A stretch of DNA of 64,000 bases from a bacterium (GTDB lineage: Bacteria; Patescibacteriota; Minisyncoccia; UBA6257; Colwellbacteraceae). Of this stretch, positions 10,312 through 61,771 are shown piece after piece. Every line of letters starts with the position of its first letter. The stretch's first letter is position 1. The notes beneath the pieces were generated by a model that made no database searches, had not been told where the DNA came from, and worked only from the letters and a program-made list of their open reading frames with translations. A program made the position numbers and the translations under genes. The stretch lies in contig JAJYME010000004.1 of NCBI GenBank assembly GCA_021787205.1, positions 39,063 through 103,062 of the forward strand, given 5' to 3'.

Positions 10312-11684
10312 TGGAAAAAAAGAAAAATACAAAAGCAAGCGAGAGCAAGAAGGTGACAAAGAGCACGACTGCGCGCAGCAAACCCAAAACCAAGAAGAGA
10401 GAAGGAACCGTTACTTATAGCAATGGAAGATCCGATATCCAGGTACCGGCCGTAAAGATCAAGGTTGTCGGAATCGGAGGTGGCGGCAACAATGCCGTTT
10501 CCAGGATGAACAAGGATTTCATCCGCGGAGTGGAATTCATCGCTTTGAACACCGATGTCCAGGATCTGGAAAAGACCGGGATTCGCAGATGTATCAATAT
10601 CGGACGCAACCTCACCAAGGGGATGGGCGCCGGAATGAATCCCGATGTCGGCAAACAATCAGCCGAAGAGTCGCGCTCAGAAATAATAGAGACTTTGCAG
10701 GGAGCGGATTTGGTTTTCTTGACTGCCGGCATGGGAGGAGGAACCGGTACGGGAGCAACACCGATCGTGGCTGAATGCGCCAGGGAGGTGGGAGCTCTGA
10801 CCGTGGCCGTTGTCACCAAGCCTTTTGCTTTTGAGGGTGCCCAAAGATCAAGGATCGCCGAAGACGGAATCAATAAGTTAAGGGACAAAGTCGATGCCTT
10901 GATAGTCATCCCGAACGAGAGAATATTCTCAATAATCGGAAATGATACCCCGGTAATGAAAGCCTTTATGAAAGTCGATGAGGTTCTTAAAAATACCGTT
11001 TCCGGAATTTCCGAAGTTATCACTTCGAGCGGATTGGTAAACGTGGACTTCGCGGACATAAGAGCTATCATGCAGGGAGCCGGCGTGGCTCTTGTCGGAG
11101 TCGGAATCGCTTCGGGCGCCGACAGAGCGGTAAAGGCGGCTACCCAAGCAGTCCGTTCACAACTTCTGGAGAGATCAATCGACGGAGCTCATGGAATCCT
11201 TTTCGGAATTTCCGGAGGAGTCGATCTTAAGATGTCGGAGGTCAACGAAGCGGCAAGAATCATTACTGAGAATGCCGATCCTTCCGCCAAGATCATATTC
11301 GGCGCTTACTATGACAGAAAGCTTGCGAAGGGCAATATCAAGATCAACTTGATTGCTACCGGATTCAACGGTTTCGTCACCCAAAAGGAAGGGGAGAAAG
11401 AGACGGCCGTCAAACTTGGTTCGATTTCAACCGGTTCCGCGTCGTTATCCGACCTTTCTATGTTCAATACCATCCCAGAATCGATGGAGAAAGACAAGCC
11501 GACGACTGAGAACAAGATTAAAAATCTTTTTGGAATCGGGAATGAGAAAGACTTCAAAGAAGCGAAGCTTCCTCCCATGGAAAGCTTCGAACACAAGAAG
11601 CCTGTATCTTCCGAACCGGAAGATGATGAGGATAATGATGATATGTTCAACATTCCTTCAATTTTCCGCCGAAAAAAGAAATAA
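10311..11684 (+). CDS. ftsZ: Cell division GTPase FtsZ
   Basis: The tubulin signature GGGTGTG and the VIGVGGGGNNAV-like N-terminus are present, followed by an acidic C-terminal tail. Confidence 0.9.
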   Translation: MEKKKNTKASESKKVTKSTTARSKPKTKKREGTVTYSNGRSDIQVPAVKIKVVGIGGGGNNAVSRMNKDFIRGVEFIALNTDVQDLEKTGIRRCINIGRNLTKGMGAGMNPDVGKQSAEESRSEIIETLQGADLVFLTAGMGGGTGTGATPIVAECAREVGALTVAVVTKPFAFEGAQRSRIAEDGINKLRDKVDALIVIPNERIFSIIGNDTPVMKAFMKVDEVLKNTVSGISEVITSSGLVNVDFADIRAIMQGAGVALVGVGIASGADRAVKAATQAVRSQLLERSIDGAHGILFGISGGVDLKMSEVNEAARIITENADPSAKIIFGAYYDRKLAKGNIKINLIATGFNGFVTQKEGEKETAVKLGSISTGSASLSDLSMFNTIPESMEKDKPTTENKIKNLFGIGNEKDFKEAKLPPMESFEHKKPVSSEPEDDEDNDDMFNIPSIFRRKKK

Positions 11685-11713
11685 AAATCACCCGAAAGGG
11701 TGATTTTTATTAT

Positions 11714-12346
11714 TTAATGATCATGATGATGTCCGCAACCGCAATCGCCTTCATCTCCGCAATCGCATTCCTCCTCATCTCCGCAATCGCATTCCCCGTG
11801 TTCGCAATCGTGGGAATGAATATGTTCACCGAGGTAGTTTTCCGCGAGATATGAGAGTAATTTCTGATATTCTTCAGCTTGCTCTTCACTGATGTTCTCG
11901 TTTTCCAGCTGCTCAAAATCATTCAAGAGATTGGTATCTTCGTCGGAGAGGGTTTTATTGACGGCGGGGTAAACTTCTTCTTCCTCCTTGTTAATATGGT
12001 TGTTGGCGAAGGAGACATAATCCCGGGCGCTATTTATAAGGCTTTCATCATTAGCGTTGCCTTTGTAGCCTTTGATTTCGGACATAAAATTGTCGAAGAG
12101 AACCTTTTCTTGTTTATGTTCATCAAGATGAGGCTGAAGCTCCGGCATTCTTTCCGAAAGCAGATTGGCTTCTTTTTGGTGATGGATCGAGTAAATGAAG
12201 AGTTCTAAGAAGGCAGCAAGCTGTTCCAAATCTTCAATTTTAACCTCTTGTTTATTCTCTAACTTTTGACAAGCGGCTTCGGTGATGTAGAGCATCAAAC
12301 GAATGATATTATGCTCGTCTTGCAATTGTTCTATTAACGGATGCAT
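11714..12346 (-). CDS. Hypothetical helical protein, possibly hemerythrin-like, with a Cys/His/Asp-rich metal-binding C-terminal tail
   Basis: The body carries spaced H/E residues (IHHQKEANLL, HLDEH); the C-terminus is HIHSHDCEHGECDCGDEEECDCGDEGDCGCGHHHDH. Confidence 0.4.
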   Translation of the reverse strand: MHPLIEQLQDEHNIIRLMLYITEAACQKLENKQEVKIEDLEQLAAFLELFIYSIHHQKEANLLSERMPELQPHLDEHKQEKVLFDNFMSEIKGYKGNANDESLINSARDYVSFANNHINKEEEEVYPAVNKTLSDEDTNLLNDFEQLENENISEEQAEEYQKLLSYLAENYLGEHIHSHDCEHGECDCGDEEECDCGDEGDCGCGHHHDH

Positions 12347-12426
12347 GAAAATATTCTAACAGTTATCAACCTTTGTAGCCAGGGGGAGACGACCCCCACA
12401 AATCTTGACTGTTTGGTTAATTGGGA

Positions 12427-12432
12427 TATAAT
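12427..12432 (+). promoter_or_regulatory. Candidate -10 element TATAAT upstream of the intron-containing tRNA
   Basis: gggatataatg lies 36 nt before the tRNA 5' end. Confidence 0.3.
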
Positions 12433-12467
12433 GATTAGGTACCTAAAAGAGGGTATAAATCGAATAT

Positions 12468-12768
12468 TCCCCTGTAGCTCAGTGGTAGAGCGGCTCGCTG
12501 TGGCTTAACGCAGCCTCCGAAAGTAATTTCGGTTGAATAACAAGGTGAATTCGGGGAAGTCCTGACCCATAAAGACAGGATAATCCCGAGCCAAGCTCTG
12601 ATAATTATCAGAGAAGGTGTAGAGACTATCTCGAAAGAGAGTACTTTTCCGACGAACGGAACGGGAAGCGCCTTGCATCCATTTTGGATGATGATATAGT
12701 CCATCCCTTTTAGTAATAGAAGGACAAGTGTAACGAGATGGTCGTAGGTTCGAATCCTACCGGGGGAG
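12468..12768 (+). tRNA. tRNA (anticodon GUU, Asn, after splicing) interrupted in the anticodon loop by a 229-nt group I intron; CCA is not encoded
   Basis: 5' exon (12468-12501): TCCCCTG TA GCTC AGTGGTA GAGC G GCTCG CUGU. 3' exon (12731-12768): UAA CGAGA TGGTC GTAGG TTCGAAT CCTAC CGGGGGA G. The 7-bp acceptor and the D and T arms are intact. Joining the exons gives the loop CUGUUAA. The overall sequence closely parallels E. coli tRNA-Asn as I recall it, including the G73 discriminator. Confidence 0.7.
12502..12730 (+). ncRNA. Group I intron (self-splicing type) within the tRNA anticodon loop
   Basis: The conserved group I elements appear in order. P-like: GAAUUCGGGGAAGUCC. Q-like: AUAAUCCCGAGCC (UUCGGG pairs with CCCGAG, P4). 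R-like: GUAGAGACUAUC. S-like: GAUAUAGUCC (GACUA pairs with UAGUC, P7). Other features: a P2 hairpin CCGAAA-GUAA-UUUCGG; a P6-like 8-bp hairpin CUCUGAUA/UAUCAGAG; a P1 pairing of exon GCUGU with intron GCAGC with U-G at the splice site; a terminal G at 12730; and a possible P10 UAA/UUA. Confidence 0.8.
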
Positions 12769-12775
12769 CATAATA

Positions 12776-12802
12776 AAAACGAGGCGAAAGCCTCGTTTTT
12801 CC
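12776..12802. terminator. Rho-independent terminator downstream of the tRNA
   Basis: AAAAACGAGGC GAAA GCCTCGTTTTT. Confidence 0.6.
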
Positions 12803-12903
12803 ATATGTAGCATGTTTTAATCGCGCATTAAGGGTTCAGGCATTGCGGGTTGGATCGTATTTGATTTACTGAAGAATAAACGCGCAATCTTTCATAGAGC
12901 TCA

Positions 12904-13398
12904 TTAATCTTTTTTGATTATATGTGTGAAGGTGTCTAATTTGTCGTTCATCATCAAATCCTTAACAGTGAACGGTCTAAGGTCTATTTCTCTCAATTCA
13001 TCAATAGAAACCCATTTGATAAATAAGCGCTTTTCTTCACCACGATCAATTTCTATGACTTCTCTGTCAACTGTTTCAAGGCATTCTTCCGGTTCAACAA
13101 TGTAGTAGTATTCTACACCATGTTGAACAATTCCTTTTTTCTCATAGAAATTTTCTTGAATACAAAATAGGGTTGCTTTTTTAACGGTGTAATCTAATTC
13201 TTCCTTGATTTCTCTAGCAACAGCGTCAAGAGAATCCTCGCCTATTTCAATGTGCCCACCGGGAATGTGATAATATGGCGCATTATCGACATTCATAATC
13301 AGGAATTTGTCATTGTGTCTGATAATTCCTACAGCTCGATTATAGTAATTATAATCATCCGTTTTGAATCTAATCTCTGGTTTCATTTTCAAATTCAT
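12904..13398 (-). CDS. NUDIX hydrolase
   Basis: The Nudix box GGHIEIGEDSLDAVAREIKEELDY fits Gx5Ex7REUxEExGU. Confidence 0.8.
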   Translation of the reverse strand: MNLKMKPEIRFKTDDYNYYNRAVGIIRHNDKFLIMNVDNAPYYHIPGGHIEIGEDSLDAVAREIKEELDYTVKKATLFCIQENFYEKKGIVQHGVEYYYIVEPEECLETVDREVIEIDRGEEKRLFIKWVSIDELREIDLRPFTVKDLMMNDKLDTFTHIIKKD

Positions 13399-13455
13399 AT
13401 ATCTTAAAATATCAACGCTATGCTTTATCTTACCATATTTTTAGGGATCCAGTGA

Positions 13456-13620
13456 TTACAAGCAATATCGGCAGATTTCCACCCAATTGCTATAGGAAAA
13501 TATATGCCGGAATTGGCAAGACAACCGGAAATTCTTCTTGAAAAATAGACGCTCAGTCCTTTTTATGCTTAAATCAAGCCATAAGATCCCGGTAATCGGA
13601 ACCGGGCTAGTGTCAGTCTC
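13456..13620 (-). pseudogene. Start-less C-terminal remnant of a paralog of the Cys-rich membrane protein gene at 15920-16666
   Basis: The minus-strand frame has no start codon for 55 codons and ends ...FSYSNWVEICRYCL*. It shares about 50 bp (13447-13496 vs 15911-15960) with the 3' end of the 15920 gene, which ends ...YYGNWVGICRYCP*. Confidence 0.4.
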
Positions 13621-13658
13621 CTTTGGGGGAGCAGGTGGAAAATCTTAATAAAAACATC

Positions 13659-14597
13659 ATGAAAAATAAAACCATTATTTTTACGATCATTATTTTGGTC
13701 ATTATAAGCGGCGCTTTATTTATCGGTCTTAGGCGATCGCAACCATCCGGGAATATCGACAAGACATCAAGCCAAGATGCAATCGAAGCTCCCAAGTTTG
13801 AAGCTTTTAAAGCAACCAAGTTCTTTGCCGGCACTCCGGCGTCTCCCGACTTTAAGACGAGGGAGTCTGCTTTGCAATTCAAAACTGTTATTGAGAACGG
13901 AGCGAAGAAGGGGCCTAATTTCGCTGGCGCTTATACCGTCGTCTCTTGGGGATGCGGCTCAGCCTGTCAAAACCACGCCATCCTGGATGCGGAGAGCGGG
14001 AAGATCCTTGTTTTCGGAAATGATTATGTGACAACCAGGGACCTGAAGTTTAATAAGGAGAGCAATCTTATCATTTTCGATCCTTATGATCCCGAACTTA
14101 ACCCGGCTTCTTTGGAATATGACTTTCCAGCCCGTTATTTTGTTTTTGAAAACGGCGCCTTAAGAGAGATATATAAAGAATCCTGCCTGATGGGATCAGG
14201 GGGATTAGAGTGCGGACAGCTGTCCTTCGGGTTTATCAGATCGCTTTCCTCTAACGCTATCTCTTTCGATCCGATTGAGATGCTCTCAGGAACGATTGCT
14301 CGCGACCAGGCGTCAAAGGACTTAAATTGCCCAATCGATCGGGTGGAGGAATGCGCTCCCAGTCTTAATAATGATTACTATATCAGGAATCTGGATAAGA
14401 CGGCCGTTAATTTTCCAATTGACCAGAATACGATCTTTTCCGTGGAGGCAAACCAAGGATCGCCAGTTCTAAATGAGGTCTCGATTTCCGAATTCGGCAA
14501 CGAGTATTCCGAATCAAACAATTTGCGTCTGGCGCCGTTCAAGATAATGGTCAAGAATGGAAGAGTAATCAAAATCGAGCAACAATATTTACCATAG
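13659..14597 (+). CDS. Hypothetical secreted/membrane-anchored protein
   Basis: The start is set at the internal ATG (MKNKTIIFTIIILVIISGALFIGL, a signal anchor). The rest is a Cys-containing soluble domain with no recognisable family. Confidence 0.45.
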   Translation: MKNKTIIFTIIILVIISGALFIGLRRSQPSGNIDKTSSQDAIEAPKFEAFKATKFFAGTPASPDFKTRESALQFKTVIENGAKKGPNFAGAYTVVSWGCGSACQNHAILDAESGKILVFGNDYVTTRDLKFNKESNLIIFDPYDPELNPASLEYDFPARYFVFENGALREIYKESCLMGSGGLECGQLSFGFIRSLSSNAISFDPIEMLSGTIARDQASKDLNCPIDRVEECAPSLNNDYYIRNLDKTAVNFPIDQNTIFSVEANQGSPVLNEVSISEFGNEYSESNNLRLAPFKIMVKNGRVIKIEQQYLP

Positions 14598-14668
14598 TCG
14601 AAAAAAGAGGGACATTAGTCATTCTCCCTCATTCTTCCCAATATTCTTTTTTGATATAATAAATCGAT

Positions 14669-15094
14669 ATGAAGTACAGCGAGTTCAAAAGAACCATTAC
14701 CCAGTGTCCCTTTTGTTATGGGGACCATAATGAAACGATTATTGAAAACGATCGGGCTATTCTTACCTATTCTTTAGCGCCTTATCATAAGCATCATTTG
14801 CTAGTCATCCCCAAAAGACATGTTGAAAAGATCGACGACATTTCATCTGAGGAGTACGAAGCAATTGATTCTTTAATCAAGAAGGGAATAGAGATTCTTA
14901 AGGCGCTTGGCTATGATAACTATACTATCTTAGTCAGAGAGGGGGCCGGTTCAGGCCGAAGCGTTCCTCACATCCATTATCACGTTATTCCTGATATCAG
15001 GTTGGGGGATAATGATCACGCCGGCGCTGACAGGCTGATTTTGGAAGCCGATCAAATTGCGGCTCTGATGTCGGAAATCAAGAGTGTTCTTTAG
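14669..15094 (+). CDS. HIT-family protein (second copy) with an N-terminal CxxC
   Basis: CPFCYG ... HHLLVIPKRH ... HIHYHVIP histidine triad; TGATATAAT lies upstream. Confidence 0.7.
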   Translation: MKYSEFKRTITQCPFCYGDHNETIIENDRAILTYSLAPYHKHHLLVIPKRHVEKIDDISSEEYEAIDSLIKKGIEILKALGYDNYTILVREGAGSGRSVPHIHYHVIPDIRLGDNDHAGADRLILEADQIAALMSEIKSVL

Positions 15095-15127
15095 GGCTGT
15101 CTGTTCTAAGACAGTTTCACTATAAAA

Positions 15128-15841
15128 ATGACCAAATTATATAAAAAACATAAGATATATATTTTTGCATTCCTGCTTGCTCTGATGCCGGCATCGACTC
15201 TGGCCGCTGCCAATTCAGGTAATGCGGGAAGCTCCACCGCTGCCGCGGTCGGCAGCGCGACGATAGCCAGCCCGGTCTGTTTCGTTTTCGCGAGGAACCT
15301 TGGATATGGCATGCGCGGAAGTGACGTCGCAAATCTTCAATCATATTTGGCGGCAAATACAAAGTATGCTGGCGGAGCGACCGGGTATTTCGGACCTCTT
15401 ACGCGCGCAGCCGTCGCGGCGTGGCAGGCAGCCAATAAAATTTCCTCGACCGGGTATATTGGACCGCTTTCGAGGGCGAAAATATCTTGCCCGAGCAATG
15501 AAACGACCACCTCTGTCATGTTCAATGCCAACCCGTTATCCGGGACGGCGCCCCTCGCCGTTGATTTCTCCGTATCATTAAAGAATGCAGGACAATATAT
15601 AATCGAGTTTGGTGACGGCGCTAACAGCGGTCCGCTTCAAAGCCGTTGTTTGAGCTCGAACTCCAGCCTTGGCGCGCCCAACGCCATATCGTGCGGGATT
15701 TCCGCGGAGCATTCTTATAAGATAGCCGGCGATTATACCGCGACACTTCTTCCATACATAGCCTGCCTTTACGCGACTACGGGCGTCCGATGTATGATAG
15801 CAACGATGCCGTTGGGGCAAGTAAAAATAACGGCGCGTTAA
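15128..15841 (+). CDS. Secreted protein with a peptidoglycan-binding-like domain and a PKD-like domain
   Basis: A signal peptide is followed by GSDVANLQSYLAANTKYAGGATGYFGPLTRAAVAAWQ (PG_binding_1-like), then FNANPLSGTAPLAVDFSVS...IEFGDGANSG (PKD-like). Confidence 0.5.
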   Translation: MTKLYKKHKIYIFAFLLALMPASTLAAANSGNAGSSTAAAVGSATIASPVCFVFARNLGYGMRGSDVANLQSYLAANTKYAGGATGYFGPLTRAAVAAWQAANKISSTGYIGPLSRAKISCPSNETTTSVMFNANPLSGTAPLAVDFSVSLKNAGQYIIEFGDGANSGPLQSRCLSSNSSLGAPNAISCGISAEHSYKIAGDYTATLLPYIACLYATTGVRCMIATMPLGQVKITAR

Positions 15842-15919
15842 TGCTCATCAATAAGATCTGAAATATCAAGGCCAGCTGATAGCTGGCCTTTTTGTTCTTT
15901 ATTATCAGGGATTGAGTGA

Positions 15920-16666
15920 TTAGGGGCAATATCGGCAGATTCCCACCCAGTTGCCATAATAGAGCTTTGAATAATCAATAAGGTAGCAACCTTTGATATT
16001 GATTTCTTGTCCGCCATAATAATAATGTCCGGAACAATAATACAACGATCCGCAGCCGCTGTCGCACTTCGCGGTGTCCCTGTTATTCGTACCAGTTTTC
16101 TCTTTTACGCAACAATAGACGCCTGAAATGCCAGAGGAACAGTTTCCTTGAGGGGCAATCGTGGCGTTTCCAGTAGAGCAAGTATAACAATGGCTATTGG
16201 TGCCGTAGATTCCTTTGAGCCCTTTATCGTCGACGCACGTCGAGCCATAGAGATCGGTTCTTTGGATTATGTTACCGGGATTTTTTGGAAACGATCCCGC
16301 GCCAAAGAACCAAATGAAAAGGCCGATAATGAAAGCTATTATCAGCAGGGGAAGCGGATTGACCGGCTTGTCCTTCGCTTCCGGTCTGGCGTCGGGTTCG
16401 ATATCATTTCTGACGCCGCCGAAGAATATATAGAAAAACAATTGGGGGATGATGCCGTAATAAGCAATAAGGCCAATCGTGATAAGAACGACGGCGGCGA
16501 TGTTGTTTTTCACAGCCTCAATAATGATTTCTTGAGAAAAATTATCCAGGCGGATCTTTTGATTAAGGAGAAAGATCAGAATGAGGAAGAGGGGGAGGAT
16601 GAGATAGCACACCTTAAGGATGCGATAATACCACTTGCCCTCTAAAATTGATTTTTTAATTGGCAT
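15920..16666 (-). CDS. Membrane protein with a Cys-rich extracellular C-terminal domain, hypothetical
   Basis: The start is moved to the internal ATG (MPIKKS...), because the first ATG of the ORF would translate through a strong hairpin at 16678-16707. Three TM segments are followed by a Cys-rich region: CVDDKG, CYTCSTG, CSSGISGVYCC, CDSGCG. Confidence 0.45.
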   Translation of the reverse strand: MPIKKSILEGKWYYRILKVCYLILPLFLILIFLLNQKIRLDNFSQEIIIEAVKNNIAAVVLITIGLIAYYGIIPQLFFYIFFGGVRNDIEPDARPEAKDKPVNPLPLLIIAFIIGLFIWFFGAGSFPKNPGNIIQRTDLYGSTCVDDKGLKGIYGTNSHCYTCSTGNATIAPQGNCSSGISGVYCCVKEKTGTNNRDTAKCDSGCGSLYYCSGHYYYGGQEINIKGCYLIDYSKLYYGNWVGICRYCP

Positions 16667-16848
16667 GTTTTTATTAAAAAGACCTGGACCGATAGGGGGT
16701 CCGGGTCTCAAATGCCTCTTGTGAGTTATTATATCATTAGTCTGATTTTCTACAAGGCGAGACCGGTTCCAGGAGATGTGGAAAACGGTTTTCGGATTTA
16801 TGTGTTAAAATGTTGGAAAGGTCATAATTATAATTTGGTGACAAACTT

Positions 16849-17241
16849 ATGGTTAAAAAAAGAAAATTGATATTGGCGCTAACCATTTCGGTTTTCGCGT
16901 TTCTGGCTTTTTATCTTTTATCTAGCCAGCCAATCGTCTTAACCGGCAGCTGCGATCTTCATGACGCCATAGGAAACAGGATCTCAGTAAACCAAGGAGA
17001 AGTAGCGACTGTAGGGAAGATCCGGATCGGAGTCGTCGCCACAAAGGGCGATTTGGTGAGAATATCTCTCAAGACGGATAGTAAGGCTGAGGGTGAAAAT
17101 TTCAATCTGGCTCTTTGTGAGAGCCGAAGGGCAGACGGGTATCGGATCCAAGTCTTGGCTATCACGGAGAGACGCTGGCTATTATTTCCCAAACCAGGAA
17201 GCAGTACTGGCTCCGTTAGCCTCTTTGTGACCGGGGAATAG
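16849..17241 (+). CDS. Hypothetical secreted protein
   Basis: The N-terminal signal/TM segment is LILALTISVFAFLAFYLL; no family was recognised. Confidence 0.4.
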   Translation: MVKKRKLILALTISVFAFLAFYLLSSQPIVLTGSCDLHDAIGNRISVNQGEVATVGKIRIGVVATKGDLVRISLKTDSKAEGENFNLALCESRRADGYRIQVLAITERRWLLFPKPGSSTGSVSLFVTGE

Positions 17242-17329
17242 CAACGACCGGTTCATCAAGCTTTTGTTCTGAATCCGTCTTCTTGCCGATCGATTGAGTC
17301 AAAAGTCAAAAATAAATTATAATTAAATT

Positions 17330-17806
17330 ATGAAATTATCAGACTTCTACAAGTTGGCGGCAGCTATCATAGTTTCGGAAATGGCAGGGATCATCGGATC
17401 AGCCTTTACTTTTCCGGCGATAGGTAGTTGGTACGCCGGACTTGTAAGACCGAGGATCGCCCCGCCAAATTGGTTGTTTGGCCCGGTATGGACCGCTCTT
17501 TTTCTGCTGATGGGCATTGCCGCTTTCTTGGTTTGGAGGAAAGGACTTGGAAATAAGGAGGTAAGATCGGCTCTTTTCCTCTTTGGAGTCCAGTTAGTTC
17601 TCAACGCCTTGTGGTCATTCATATTCTTTGGAGCGCATTCCTTAGGGGGAGCCTTTATCGAATTGGTCGTCCTTTGGATCGCGATTGCGGCAACGATGGC
17701 GGCTTTTTCAAGAGTCTCCAAGGCGGCGACCTGGCTCATGGTTCCCTACATTTTATGGGTCACATTCGCGGGCTTCCTAAACTTCCTGTTCTGGGTATTA
17801 AATTAG
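17330..17806 (+). CDS. TspO/MBR (tryptophan-rich sensory protein) family membrane protein
   Basis: The conserved segments PPNWLFGPVWTALF and LFLFGVQLVLNALWSFIFFG are present across five TM helices. Confidence 0.8.
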   Translation: MKLSDFYKLAAAIIVSEMAGIIGSAFTFPAIGSWYAGLVRPRIAPPNWLFGPVWTALFLLMGIAAFLVWRKGLGNKEVRSALFLFGVQLVLNALWSFIFFGAHSLGGAFIELVVLWIAIAATMAAFSRVSKAATWLMVPYILWVTFAGFLNFLFWVLN

Positions 17807-17852
17807 TCACCGGATATGTTAGAATAAAGGAAAGGTCATAAATTATTAAGGA

Positions 17853-18059
17853 ATGCTAAAAGATCATAATCACGATTTGGTTCACCAGCTTTCCGAGACA
17901 TCCGACAGTATCTGGAGGATGGAAGAGTATTTAAAAAATGCCGACGGATGCGAGAGCTGCCAAGCGCTCTGGAATGAGATAAAGAACGATTGCGAAAAAC
18001 ACGCCGAGCTCTTAAAGGGAGAAATCGCAAGACATGTCAGCGAGAACAGATTCGAATAA
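17853..18059 (+). CDS. Small hypothetical protein (68 aa) with a CxxC pair
   Basis: It is an ORF only; the sequence contains CESCQALWNEIKNDC. Confidence 0.3.
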   Translation: MLKDHNHDLVHQLSETSDSIWRMEEYLKNADGCESCQALWNEIKNDCEKHAELLKGEIARHVSENRFE

Positions 18060-18151
18060 TTTGTCCTCGCGCACCTCTTAAGATATAATGAAAGAAGAGG
18101 GAATTAATACTATCCCCGCGTCTATAAACAAAGGTCGTATTTTAAAATCTT

Positions 18152-18358
18152 ATGAAGATATTAAATTGGTTAGCCCTTGTCCTTGTAATCGTCGGCGGAT
18201 TGAATTGGGGGTTGGTTGGATTCTTAAACTTTGATTTAGTGGCCATGATTTTCGGGACAATGACATTCCTTTCAAGAGCGGTTTATTCGCTCGTTGGGTT
18301 GAGCGCCTTATATATGCTTTTCGGCCTGACAAAGGTTAAGGAAGGAAATTGGTTATAA
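18152..18358 (+). CDS. DUF378-family small membrane protein
   Basis: LVLVIVGGLNWGLVGF matches the DUF378 signature; there are two TM helices. Confidence 0.6.
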   Translation: MKILNWLALVLVIVGGLNWGLVGFLNFDLVAMIFGTMTFLSRAVYSLVGLSALYMLFGLTKVKEGNWL

Positions 18359-18361
18359 GTT

Positions 18362-18392
18362 AAAAAGAGGCAAAAGCCTCTTTTTTGTTTTT
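18362..18392 (+). terminator. Rho-independent terminator
   Basis: AAAAAGAGGC AAAA GCCTCTTTTTTGTTTTTC. Confidence 0.6.
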
Positions 18393-18412
18393 CTTGCCGA
18401 ACCCAATCGTGA

Positions 18413-18418
18413 TATAAT
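18413..18418 (+). promoter_or_regulatory. -10 element (GTGATATAAT) upstream of the P-type ATPase gene
   Basis: cgtgatataatttgccaaATG; only 7 nt separate the -10 from the ATG, so the leader is very short. Confidence 0.4.
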
Positions 18419-18425
18419 TTGCCAA

Positions 18426-51841: not shown

Positions 51842-51846
51842 TTTTA

Positions 51847-51916
51847 TTTTCGATTCTCGGCCTTACAAATAAAAATAACCCCCACCTTTATACGGGGGTT
51901 ATTCTATCTGTCGGGC
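51847..51916 (+). repeat. Copy A of a ~70-nt direct repeat (copy B at 52085-52154) containing a terminator hairpin
   Basis: The first 44 nt (ttttcgattctcggccttacaaataaaaataacccccaccttta) and the last 16 nt (attctatctgtcgggc) are identical. The hairpin 3' arm differs (tacgggggtt vs ggtggggatt), yet both versions still fold. Confidence 0.7.
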
Positions 51917-51962
51917 ATTTTGAGATGCCGAACGAAAACCGCCCACGTATGGGCGGTTTGGT

Positions 51963-51980
51963 TCTGTCGGGCTGCCGAGA
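51963..51980 (+). repeat. 18-bp direct repeat of the tRNA-Pro 3' end (tctgtcgggctgccgaga; second copy at 52145-52162 overlapping the tRNA)
   Basis: The copies are exact and 182 bp apart. Confidence 0.7.
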
Positions 51981-52148
51981 CGCTTCGCTATCTCACGTCG
52001 CGGAAGCGTCCGTTCCTGTGAAACCCACGGTTTCACAGACATCCTATACGGAAGGGATACTGAGTCTCCCTTCCGACCCATCCCTTTTCGATTCTCGGCC
52101 TTACAAATAAAAATAACCCCCACCTTTAGGTGGGGATTATTCTATCTG

Positions 52149-52219
52149 TCGGGCTGCCGAGAATCGAACTCGGTCTTTACGCACCCGAAGCGCACGTACT
52201 ACCGGTATACTACAGCCCG
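52149..52219 (-). tRNA. tRNA-Pro (anticodon CGG); CCA not encoded
   Basis: Reverse complement: CGGGCTG TA GTAT ACCGGTA GTAC G TGCGC TTCGGGT GCGTA AAGA CCGAG TTCGATT CTCGG CAGCCCG A. G37 is present. Confidence 0.8.
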
Positions 52220-61537: not shown

Positions 61538-61608
61538 GGGCTCGTAGTTAAACGGCAGAACGGTACATTCGCATTGTACAGATAGGGGTTCAATTCCCCT
61601 CGAGTCCA
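61538..61608 (+). tRNA. tRNA-Ala (anticodon CGC) with the G3-U70 identity pair; CCA not encoded
   Basis: GGGCTCG TA GTT AAACGGCAG AAC G GTACA TTCGCAT TGTAC AGAT AGGGG TTCAATT CCCCT CGAGTCC A. Confidence 0.85.
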
Positions 61609-61640
61609 CAAATTGAACCGCCGGAAGCCCGCAATATTTT
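61587..61640 (+). repeat. Direct repeat copy 1: the tRNA-Ala 3' 22 nt plus ~32 nt of downstream flank (copy 2 at 61696-61750)
   Basis: ggt(t)caattcccctcgagtccacaaattgaaccgccggaagccc(g/a)caatat appears twice, 109 bp apart, in the same orientation. Confidence 0.75.
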
Positions 61641-61695
61641 TTTCATTGGCGGGCTGAGGCGCGGCCCGAAGGAAATCCGCAGGATTTACCTGAGA

Positions 61696-61750
61696 GGTCA
61701 ATTCCCCTCGAGTCCACAAATTGAACCGCCGGAAGCCCACAATATATTTT
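61696..61750 (+). repeat. Direct repeat copy 2 (a partial tRNA-Ala 3' end that is not a complete tRNA)
   Basis: See copy 1. The upstream sequence gcgggctgaggcgcggcccgaaggaaatccgcaggatttacc does not fold as a tRNA 5' half. Confidence 0.75.
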
Positions 61751-61771
61751 TATTGACAAGAAGTTTGAAAA

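Follow-up and report, generated by a model that had tools for sequence, protein, structure and literature searches.

A conserved, folded module behind tRNA genes of nearly every type in Patescibacteria

In the window, by which we mean the whole 64-kb stretch of DNA analysed here, the plus-strand gene for the CCA-adding enzyme (cca) and an intact minus-strand tRNA-Pro(CGG) gene enclose a spacer that is dense in repeats and hairpins (Table 1). A sequence-only reading had listed most of these elements, and they held up on recounting. The two copies of a 70-nt direct repeat, at 51847-51916 and 52085-52154, agree at 66 of 70 positions, and the 38-nt core of this repeat has only 2 occurrences in the 64-kb window, where 0 would be expected. 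The reported 18-bp copy of the tRNA-Pro 3' end (TCTGTCGGGCTGCCGAGA), which comprises the last 14-15 nt of tRNA-Pro(CGG) and 3-4 nt of its trailer, is exact at 51963-51980 and 52145-52162, and the tctgtcgggc motif (TCTGTCGGGC) does occur three times, against an expectation of 0.11 and with three occurrences reached in 0/100 shuffles. The stems of the hairpin series are all present, although one of them, GGCAT/ATGCC, is trivial at only 5 bp, and the terminator hairpin embedded in the 70-nt repeat indeed exists in a compensatory variant, with four substitutions moving the pairing register while the hairpin is kept in both copies. Overlooked was an inverted copy, TTCGATTCTCGGC, which is found exactly at 51849 and 52087, inverts the T-loop and T-stem 3' strand of the tRNA (52156-52168) and stands at the start of both 70-nt copies. 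Upon folding 140 nt of the minus strand, we obtained a free energy of -54.5 kcal/mol (z = -3.1). All the repeats and hairpins described earlier turn out to be parts of one object, which reads on the minus (tRNA-sense) strand.

Table 1. Features of the spacer between cca and tRNA-Pro and of the two flanking genes, by position in the window.
Feature	Position	Strand	Basis or remark
cca gene, CCA-adding enzyme, 485 aa	50384-51841	+	ORF list, translation, Pfam PolyA_pol/HD, homologues
Second tandem unit, truncated (copy 1 of the 70-nt repeat)	51847-51916	-	layout inferred via unit 1 and relatives
Terminator hairpin of the truncated unit	51874-51883 with 51894-51903
Segment S': intrinsic-terminator hairpin 51936-51959 (AAACCGCCCA/TGGGCGGTTT) and TTCGTTCGGCAT	51917-51962	-
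Hairpin in S'	51936-51945 with 51950-51959
Complete module, ~148 nt	51962-52109	-	covariance model R1, 77.2 bits, E 1.4e-16
X', exact 18-nt copy of the tRNA-Pro 3' end	51963-51980	-	model alignment and family behaviour
Hairpin, alternative to helix c	51979-51988 with 52000-52010
Optional insert AGCGAAGCG, GCGAAGC mini-hairpin	51981-51989	-
GUGAGAU, conserved 3' extension of P1	51990-51996	-	pairs with UCGAAA/C across two adjacent G-A mismatch positions
Helix c, variable, short CGGA/UCCG hairpin	52000-52012	-
Helix b, CUGUGAAACC-GUG-GGUUUCACAG, conserved AACCGWGGGUU tip	52016-52038	-	covariation
Hairpin of helix b	52016-52025 with 52029-52038
Helix a, CGGAAGGGA ... UCCCUUCCG, then conserved GUAUAGGA	52049-52075	-	covariation
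Hairpin of helix a	52049-52061 with 52063-52075
Purine tract GGGAUGGG (52077-52084) and turn U (52076)	52076-52084	-	predicted third strand
P1 5' strand, GGCCGAGAAUCGAAA, inverted tRNA-Pro T-loop and T-stem 3' strand; pairs with X'	52086-52100	-
tRNA-Pro trailer and intrinsic terminator hairpin 52112-52141 (AAUAAUCCCCACC/GGUGGGGGUUAUU, then U run)	52101-52147	-
Terminator hairpin behind tRNA-Pro	52112-52125 with 52128-52141
tRNA-Pro(CGG) gene, intact	52148-52219	-	ARAGORN; Rfam tRNA at 54.2 bits

The spacer consists of 1.4 tandem units of a conserved, folded, tRNA-linked module on the tRNA-sense strand. Along this strand, a unit runs from the trailer and terminator through the T-loop and T-stem 3' strand, copied in inverted orientation, and a conserved core to a direct copy of the last ~16-18 nt of the tRNA. 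In the core, a purine tract, the mirror of helix a, is followed by helix a itself and then by GUGUAGGA, helix b, the variable helix c, and GUGAGA. The inverted and the direct copy pair with each other to form P1, which closes the core and leaves the acceptor 3' strand as a tail. Accordingly laid out is X', the direct copy in the window, which contains the T-stem 3' strand, the acceptor 3' strand, the discriminator and 3 nt, and which provides the P1 3' strand plus the single-stranded tail. The complete module begins 39 nt past tRNA-Pro on the same strand and is the sole match in the 64-kb window to R1, a covariance model that we built from 62 copies. Copy 2 of the 70-nt repeat comprises the trailer/terminator, the purine tract with its turn U, and the P1 5' strand; given this layout of the unit, copy 1 is the start of a truncated unit 2, in which the tRNA 3'-end copy is represented by its final 10 nt (51907-51916), followed by the trailer, the terminator hairpin and a copy of the P1 5' strand (51847-51862), and which then ends abutting the cca stop. 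The earlier suggestion of a duplicated terminator region was hence correct as far as it went but incomplete, as the 70-nt repeat forms the first part of a truncated tandem unit. Between the two units lies S', which shares homology with the single terminator that separates tRNA-Pro from cca in the closest relative, L007 (L-numbers denote the related loci and metagenome contigs compared, and W the window) and has a 10-nt repeat, GCCCGACAGA, on its flanks. In the window, most of the helix c region (52000-52010) can alternatively engage with 51979-51988 in the previously reported hairpin GACGCTTCGC/GCGGAAGCGTC, a pairing that is not conserved in L003. The GCGAAGC insert is present too in L003, L140, L179, L105 and L147. 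Two open reading frames that cross the region, 51899-52123 (minus) and 51925-52110 (plus), were rejected as coding, since the window and L003 differ by indels of 7, 1 and 2 nt that disrupt any reading frame.

Searches beyond the window revealed a large family. Exact 20-23-mers of the window insert had no match in viral, genome or metagenome collections; the searched lineage is rare in collections, and a degenerate gapped pattern derived from the conserved blocks was needed. This pattern retrieved at least 120 metagenome loci, and R1 gave 111-112 further matches at E<1e-8 in metagenome loci, with E-values down to 1e-28, so that pattern and R1 together yielded >140 copies on Patescibacteria metagenome contigs. 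Among the 107 copies with 400-nt flanks, 80 have a tRNA gene just upstream on the same strand (median gap 47 nt), a tRNA is arranged otherwise in 7, and 27 are without a tRNA. The linked tRNAs comprise nearly all isotypes (~18 amino-acid types in >100 contigs), and both copies agree with the local tRNA, the inverted one over 7-19 nt and the 3'-end one over a modal length of 15-16 nt. Nearly identical cores occur at different tRNAs (L108 at Arg and L149 at Ser; L093 at Leu and L157 at Phe), and three modules that share a contig have an identity of only 66-72%. On L018 there are two modules, whose 3'-end copies differ. A scan with Rfam 15, which the sequence-only reading had proposed, brought up no catalogued family beyond tRNA: even at permissive thresholds, the window and canonical modules gave only tRNA plus terminator-like noise (rimP, rnk_pseudo, miRNAs). 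A suspected likeness to the tRNA-like domain of tmRNA, to 5S rRNA or to SRP was dropped, having found no support in the Rfam searches. The module is thus conserved, uncatalogued, and follows tRNA genes of almost every type in Patescibacteria.

We found the fold to be conserved by compensatory change. On the 62-sequence alignment, P1, a and b were paired in 83.5% of cells compared to 73.3% in 500 shuffles, with a covariation score of 0.338 versus 0.160 that was reached in 0/500 of them, and slid registers scored far lower. Helix a is 98.1% paired and helix b 98.7% paired, each with 5 pairs changed on both sides, and P1 runs on via UCGAAC/GUGAGA over two adjacent G-A mismatch positions (alignment columns 45-50 with 174-179). 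Compensatory changes also separate stems a and b of the window, L003, L090 and L088 loci. The core is retained even in circularly permuted copies (L141, L189 and L191), in which the loop of helix a is open, the helix is joined to P1, and the purine tract and the a-5' strand come after helix b. The conserved fold reads on the tRNA-sense strand; a count of G-U versus A-C combinations gave 54 versus 29 in the tRNA sense, in itself only a weak preference. Furthermore, the module depends on and co-varies with the 3' end of the neighbouring tRNA: the P1 5' strand changes along with the local tRNA in L090, L088 and L008, the inverted copy fits the T-stem of its own genome (GCCGAGA in W, CUGGGAA in L090, GGGAAU in L088), and an A/G difference between W and L003 appears in both the tRNA and the copy. 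Of the three interpretations offered earlier, that of a small structured RNA came closest, as the hairpins are helices of a conserved, covarying module on the minus strand, with the RNA role a prediction.

Next to helix a, a second type of covariation was observed. In the window, the purine tract GGGAUGGG is the mirror image of the helix a 5' strand, with 7 consistent layers (52077-52084 over 52067-52075). Across the family, the tract, which lies 5' of helix a, obeys a mirror rule in which G stands opposite G(-C), A opposite A(-U) and U opposite A(-U); this rule is followed at 435/470 positions (93%) as compared to 334±8 (71%) when the tracts are shuffled among sequences, with the observed count reached in 0/2000 shuffles, whereas antiparallel Watson-Crick registers attained 73% at most. 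Judged from these sequence patterns, the mirror covariation would fit an antiparallel purine-motif triplex on helix a, of class I in the class I/II scheme for intrastrand triplexes (PMC4666352). A second triplex on helix b was hinted at by the model-based alignment and was discarded, as fixed offsets in the raw sequences did not confirm it. Three properties occur together in the module, namely a permutation-tolerant core, 5-8 predicted purine-purine-pyrimidine triples on helix a, and the graft of that permutable core into a mimic of the T-arm/acceptor 3'-half of a tRNA, and we tentatively propose, at a confidence somewhat short of even, that they mark a candidate, hitherto undescribed and Patescibacteria-specific class of folded nucleic acid.

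Comparison with relatives showed that repeat-flanked units differ in number from locus to locus. The window belongs to a Colwellbacteria-like genome of the Patescibacteria, and the spacer itself is identical in two MAGs. Alignment with relatives, which had been suggested as a way to find an uninterrupted cca–tRNA-Pro spacer, did uncover an empty site: L007, whose CCA enzyme is 86% identical to that of the window, has one terminator between the cca stop and tRNA-Pro and no module. Relative to it, the window contains an insert of exactly 182 bp that is flanked by an 18-bp direct repeat, with the native terminator displaced behind the second repeat. L003 (CCA 80%) contains the same pieces in a different order, namely the tRNA, the S' terminator, a 10-nt partial copy, the trailer with its terminator, the hairpin region, and the 3'-end copy. 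In L090 and L088 (CCA 64%), tRNA-Pro lies on the opposite strand and the module is retained, with tRNA-Pro followed by a terminator, the inverted T-arm copy, three hairpins, GACGUGAGA, and the 3'-end copy. Unit counts accordingly range from 0 in L007 through 1 in L090 and L088 and 1.4 in the window to 3 identical 167-nt units in L164. An ancestor with two units split by S' could have given rise to all three arrangements via 1-2 deletions between 3'-end copies. A module at tRNA-Pro(CGG) is found in W, L003, L090, L088, L138 and L140, and over the family 28 of 97 modules share their tRNA species with the nearest-neighbour module, versus 3.9% by chance, a placement that we count as support for long-term residence of the modules. 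A search of GTDB genomes with the CCA enzyme returned only distant relatives (<=57% identity), of which just one, L008, has the module.

The closest counterpart among known systems is the RtT element of E. coli. Downstream of E. coli tyrV lie three units of 178 bp, and at the end of each stands AATCCTTCCCCCACCACCA, which copies the tRNA-Tyr 3' end over 19 nt. The consensus of the Rfam family RtT (RF00391) is closed by GGGGAAGGAU/AUCCUUCCCC, that is, by an inverted copy paired with the 3'-end copy. RtT is described as an RNA that is released from the tyrT transcript and whose role in stress responses is unsettled (bioRxiv 10.1101/2024.07.17.603846). Both elements stand directly downstream of a tRNA on the same strand, are arranged in tandem units of ~170-180 nt, finish each unit with the tRNA 3' end as copied from the T-loop on (19 nt in E. 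coli, 18 nt in the window), and use the inverted and 3'-end copies as a closing helix (GCCGAGA/UCUCGGC in the window) with the acceptor 3' strand as tail. They differ in their cores, and no mirror-repeat or triplex signal is present in RtT. RF00391 had no match on the window (E<=10) or on canonical modules (E<=1 to 10), and R1 scored <=3.4 bits on RtT units, which leaves no detectable homology between the two. Moreover, RtT is known at one tRNA (Tyr) in enterobacteria, whereas the module family occurs at nearly all isotypes in Patescibacteria and is usually preceded by an intrinsic terminator. The window element is RtT-like in design and not a member of RF00391.

Intergenic repeats of other kinds share less with the module. 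REP/BIME, ERIC, BOX and Correia elements are likewise non-coding, hairpin-rich and multi-copy, occur after terminators and show stem-keeping compensatory changes, but they are bound neither to tRNA genes nor to a single orientation and contain no copies of the neighbouring gene's end. The refuting case named in the sequence-only reading, that of common REP-like elements unrelated to tRNA genes, did not apply: the elements do form a repeat family, yet one that is tightly tRNA-linked and polar, with one module copy in 64 kb rather than the distribution of REP- or MITE-like sequences. The remark that the tRNA-Ala locus in the window is duplicated at its 3' end as well was right about the layout; its insert is not of the same family and falls outside R1.

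To explain these observations, we propose a released RNA. Read-through from tRNA-Pro would transcribe the module, the tRNA-like 3'-end copy would define the 3' end of the module, and a stable structured RNA would be set free, the conserved core of which may bind a partner. The flanking direct repeats (3'-end copy plus trailer) would be intrinsic to the unit and drive its gain and loss by unequal or repeat-mediated recombination, and the 70-nt and 18-nt repeats of the window would exist because recombination between such flanking repeats adds and removes units. For read-through, tRNA-like 3'-end definition and release of a partner-binding structured RNA taken together, we consider the balance to be about even. 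A number of observations count against it. Upstream of the modules there is no conserved -10 box and none at a fixed distance, about half of the modules, that of the window included, lie behind a strong intrinsic terminator, and a terminator-like site follows the module in only 28/98 cases, as often as on the antisense strand. Helices a and b contain few wobble pairs, and the 3'-end copy is decayed in ~18% of loci. A few modules follow rpsI and not a tRNA, which we likewise count on this side.

Some of the same observations point to a different polymer. The functional fold may be that of single-stranded DNA, with the tRNA-sense (non-template) strand forming an intrastrand purine-motif triplex and hairpins during transcription or replication behind highly transcribed tRNA genes, where it would block polymerases, serve as an insulator or be a hot spot of recombination. 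The almost purely Watson-Crick helices, the missing promoter signal, the strong terminators ahead of about half of the modules and the unstable copy number all agree with this, as does the GCGAAGC insert, which we take to be an unusually stable mini-hairpin as DNA. Strongly conserved unpaired junction nucleotides and circular permutation, by contrast, typify folded RNAs, and the strict co-orientation with tRNA genes and the precedent of RtT, an RNA, fit transcription. Isolated purine-purine-pyrimidine triples do occur in RNA, for instance in tRNA cores. The mirror covariation, in turn, follows the class I purine-motif code, with the order third strand 5', purine strand, pyrimidine strand, and since purine-motif triplexes are stated not to form in RNA (PMC4666352), it favours a single-stranded DNA fold. 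Conserved intrastrand triplex repeats in bacterial DNA have been tied to polymerase arrest and genome instability (PMC4666352), and the E. coli BoxC/PIT (TMECO) elements described there offer a comparison: they too are conserved intergenic repeats with a purine-motif code (G with G-C, A/T with A-T) and a link to genome instability, although they belong to class II, in which the pyrimidine strand comes first, and are short, free-standing and without a link to tRNA genes, whereas the predicted triplex of the module is class I and one part of a 140-nt multi-helix structure. On balance, we regard a DNA fold as unlikely, yet as the main rival of the released RNA and somewhat more probable than the explanations that follow.

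A non-autonomous mobile element, miniature integrative or MITE-like, would insert at the T-loop or 3' end of a tRNA gene, bring along a 3' end and terminator in place of the original ones, and depend for its movement on a recombinase that is encoded elsewhere and acts in trans. Clean filled (window, 182 bp) and empty (L007) sites with an 18-bp direct repeat are what such an element would leave, and near-identical cores at different tRNAs, tandem arrays, and the two modules of L018 with their different 3'-end copies are in keeping with it. Integrases that target tRNA genes have att sites with just such a block of identity from the T-loop to the 3' end. For tRNA-targeting integrative elements, with their att repeats and the P4-type sublocation in the T-loop, the resemblance thus extends to a direct repeat of the tRNA 3' end that flanks the insert from the T-loop on, to an intact tRNA, and to filled and empty sites among relatives. 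The insert, however, is only ~180 bp long, has no genes, and consists of a conserved structured core and an extra inverted tRNA copy. No integrase or transposase was enriched within 4 kb of ~120 modules or found within 10 kb in the window, clustering of 918 ORFs near modules yielded no recurrent recombinase, the gapped pattern obtained 0 matches in 2.9 M viral contigs (IMG/VR), and phage and plasmid collections showed no similarity to the module. Inverted and direct copies are both target-specific, which simple insertion does not account for, and modules on the same contig are only 66-72% alike while orthologous placement at the same tRNA species is common. We therefore hold mobility to be improbable, more so than a DNA fold.

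The sequence-only reading had also considered a decayed att site, left behind after the loss of a prophage or island that had integrated into tRNA-Pro. Such a site would be expected to show direct repeats of the tRNA 3' end, and in L003 additional genes, ~7 kb of them, do separate cca from the module, but these genes are without an integrase and without flanking tRNA 3'-end copies. As the same conserved, covarying insert stands behind ~18 amino-acid types of tRNA, with no integrase or cargo nearby and no phage or plasmid match, we consider this origin very improbable. Least credible of all, and in effect refuted by the family, is that slippage duplicated the terminator region locally and neutrally, with hairpins arising by chance. 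Tandem duplications near terminators are common and the second unit is truncated, but the same core recurs at >140 loci with compensatory changes, E-values to 1e-28 and a fold z of -3.1.

The released-RNA reading and its DNA counterpart concern an element that belongs to a large uncatalogued family with unusual structural signals. The window element is the first described member of this tRNA-tied family in the candidate phyla radiation, where RNA biology is almost unexplored. It also shows that the RtT layout, until now an E. coli curiosity, is a recurrent design, which is used by at least 4 unrelated cores: the R1 family, the tRNA-Ala insert of the window, the L018/L073 type, and RtT itself. 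The flanking repeats would let copy number change rapidly beside essential single-copy tRNA genes. Should the module act as RNA, no earlier natural RNA would be known to contain an extended purine-motif triplex, and a new ribozyme or factor-binding domain may have arisen from tRNA trailers; should it act as DNA, tRNA genes would have a conserved triplex-forming element of their own. Overall, the triplex covariation makes it testable whether natural RNAs form purine-motif triplexes and whether conserved triplexes of DNA have a function in cells.

At the tRNA-Ala(CGC) locus of the window, an inverted copy of the T-loop (AATTGAACC) lies directly 3' of the tRNA and is followed by a structured insert of 54 nt and then by a 54-nt direct repeat (96%) comprising the 3'-terminal 20 nt of the tRNA together with its trailer. 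Upon comparing this locus with R1, the covariance model built from 62 copies of the tRNA-linked module family to which the tRNA-Pro element belongs, we found the insert to fall outside the model. Hence, its core differs from that of the tRNA-Pro module.

Small, unrelated inserts were also observed at other Patescibacteria tRNAs, and every one of them terminates by repeating the 3' end of the tRNA at its own locus. One such insert runs in the order T-stem 5', TTC, two hairpins, GATT, T-stem 3' and acceptor 3'. At L018, one of the compared loci, two inserts stand in tandem with differing 3'-end copies. Across the loci examined, 3'-end copies of this kind occurred at 14 of 127 tRNA calls (~9 independent loci), against an expectation of 0.17. 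The window furthermore holds a tRNA gene split by a group I intron, with the 3' exon ...GGTTCGAATCCTACCGGGGGAGCA downstream of it; ARAGORN, with introns allowed, called a tRNA spanning the intron, the identity of which is ambiguous.

Features of the tRNA-linked loci (L numbers denote related or module-bearing loci, in their own coordinates)
Feature	Location	Strand	Remarks
tRNA-Ala(CGC) locus, layout as at tRNA-Pro locus	window 61538-61751	+	
Group I intron inside tRNA gene	window 12409-12723, flanks ~12369-12790	+	RF00028, 78.8 bits
Small tRNA insert with 3'-end copy	L018 7300-7480	-	
Small tRNA insert with 3'-end copy	L073 7533-7610	+	
Small tRNA insert with 3'-end copy	L017 3690-3790	-	
Small tRNA insert with 3'-end copy	L091 2233-2358	+	
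Circularly permuted module core	L141 1138-1265		
Circularly permuted module core	L189 4166-4291		
Circularly permuted module core	L191 4464-4594		

Besides the permuted cores, a weak R1 match (20 bits, E 0.03) was obtained immediately 3' of a tRNA-Lys(CTT) (L088 5572-5689, plus strand), which carries UCGAAC and GGGGGUCGGGG, is otherwise unlike the module and may represent a degenerate or variant copy. Between the conserved GUGAGA segment and the 3'-end copy, the window module contains an optional 9-10-nt insert, (U)AGCGAAGCG (51981-51989), that is also present in L003, L140, L179, L105 and L147; GCGAAGC forms an exceptionally stable mini-hairpin in DNA.

In L003, a relative at 80% identity, ~7 kb of extra genes (11525-18423) separate cca, the CCA-adding enzyme gene, from the tRNA-Pro module. 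These encode N_methyl proteins resembling pilins, together with a NosD/beta-helix protein, and 5.3 kb of the region is flanked by an 88-bp repeat (12975-13063 and 18337-18423; 81%). Among ~120 module loci, cca was the commonest neighboring gene (10 loci), which probably reflects synteny of the tRNA-Arg, cca, tRNA-Pro cluster in the clade rather than a functional link.
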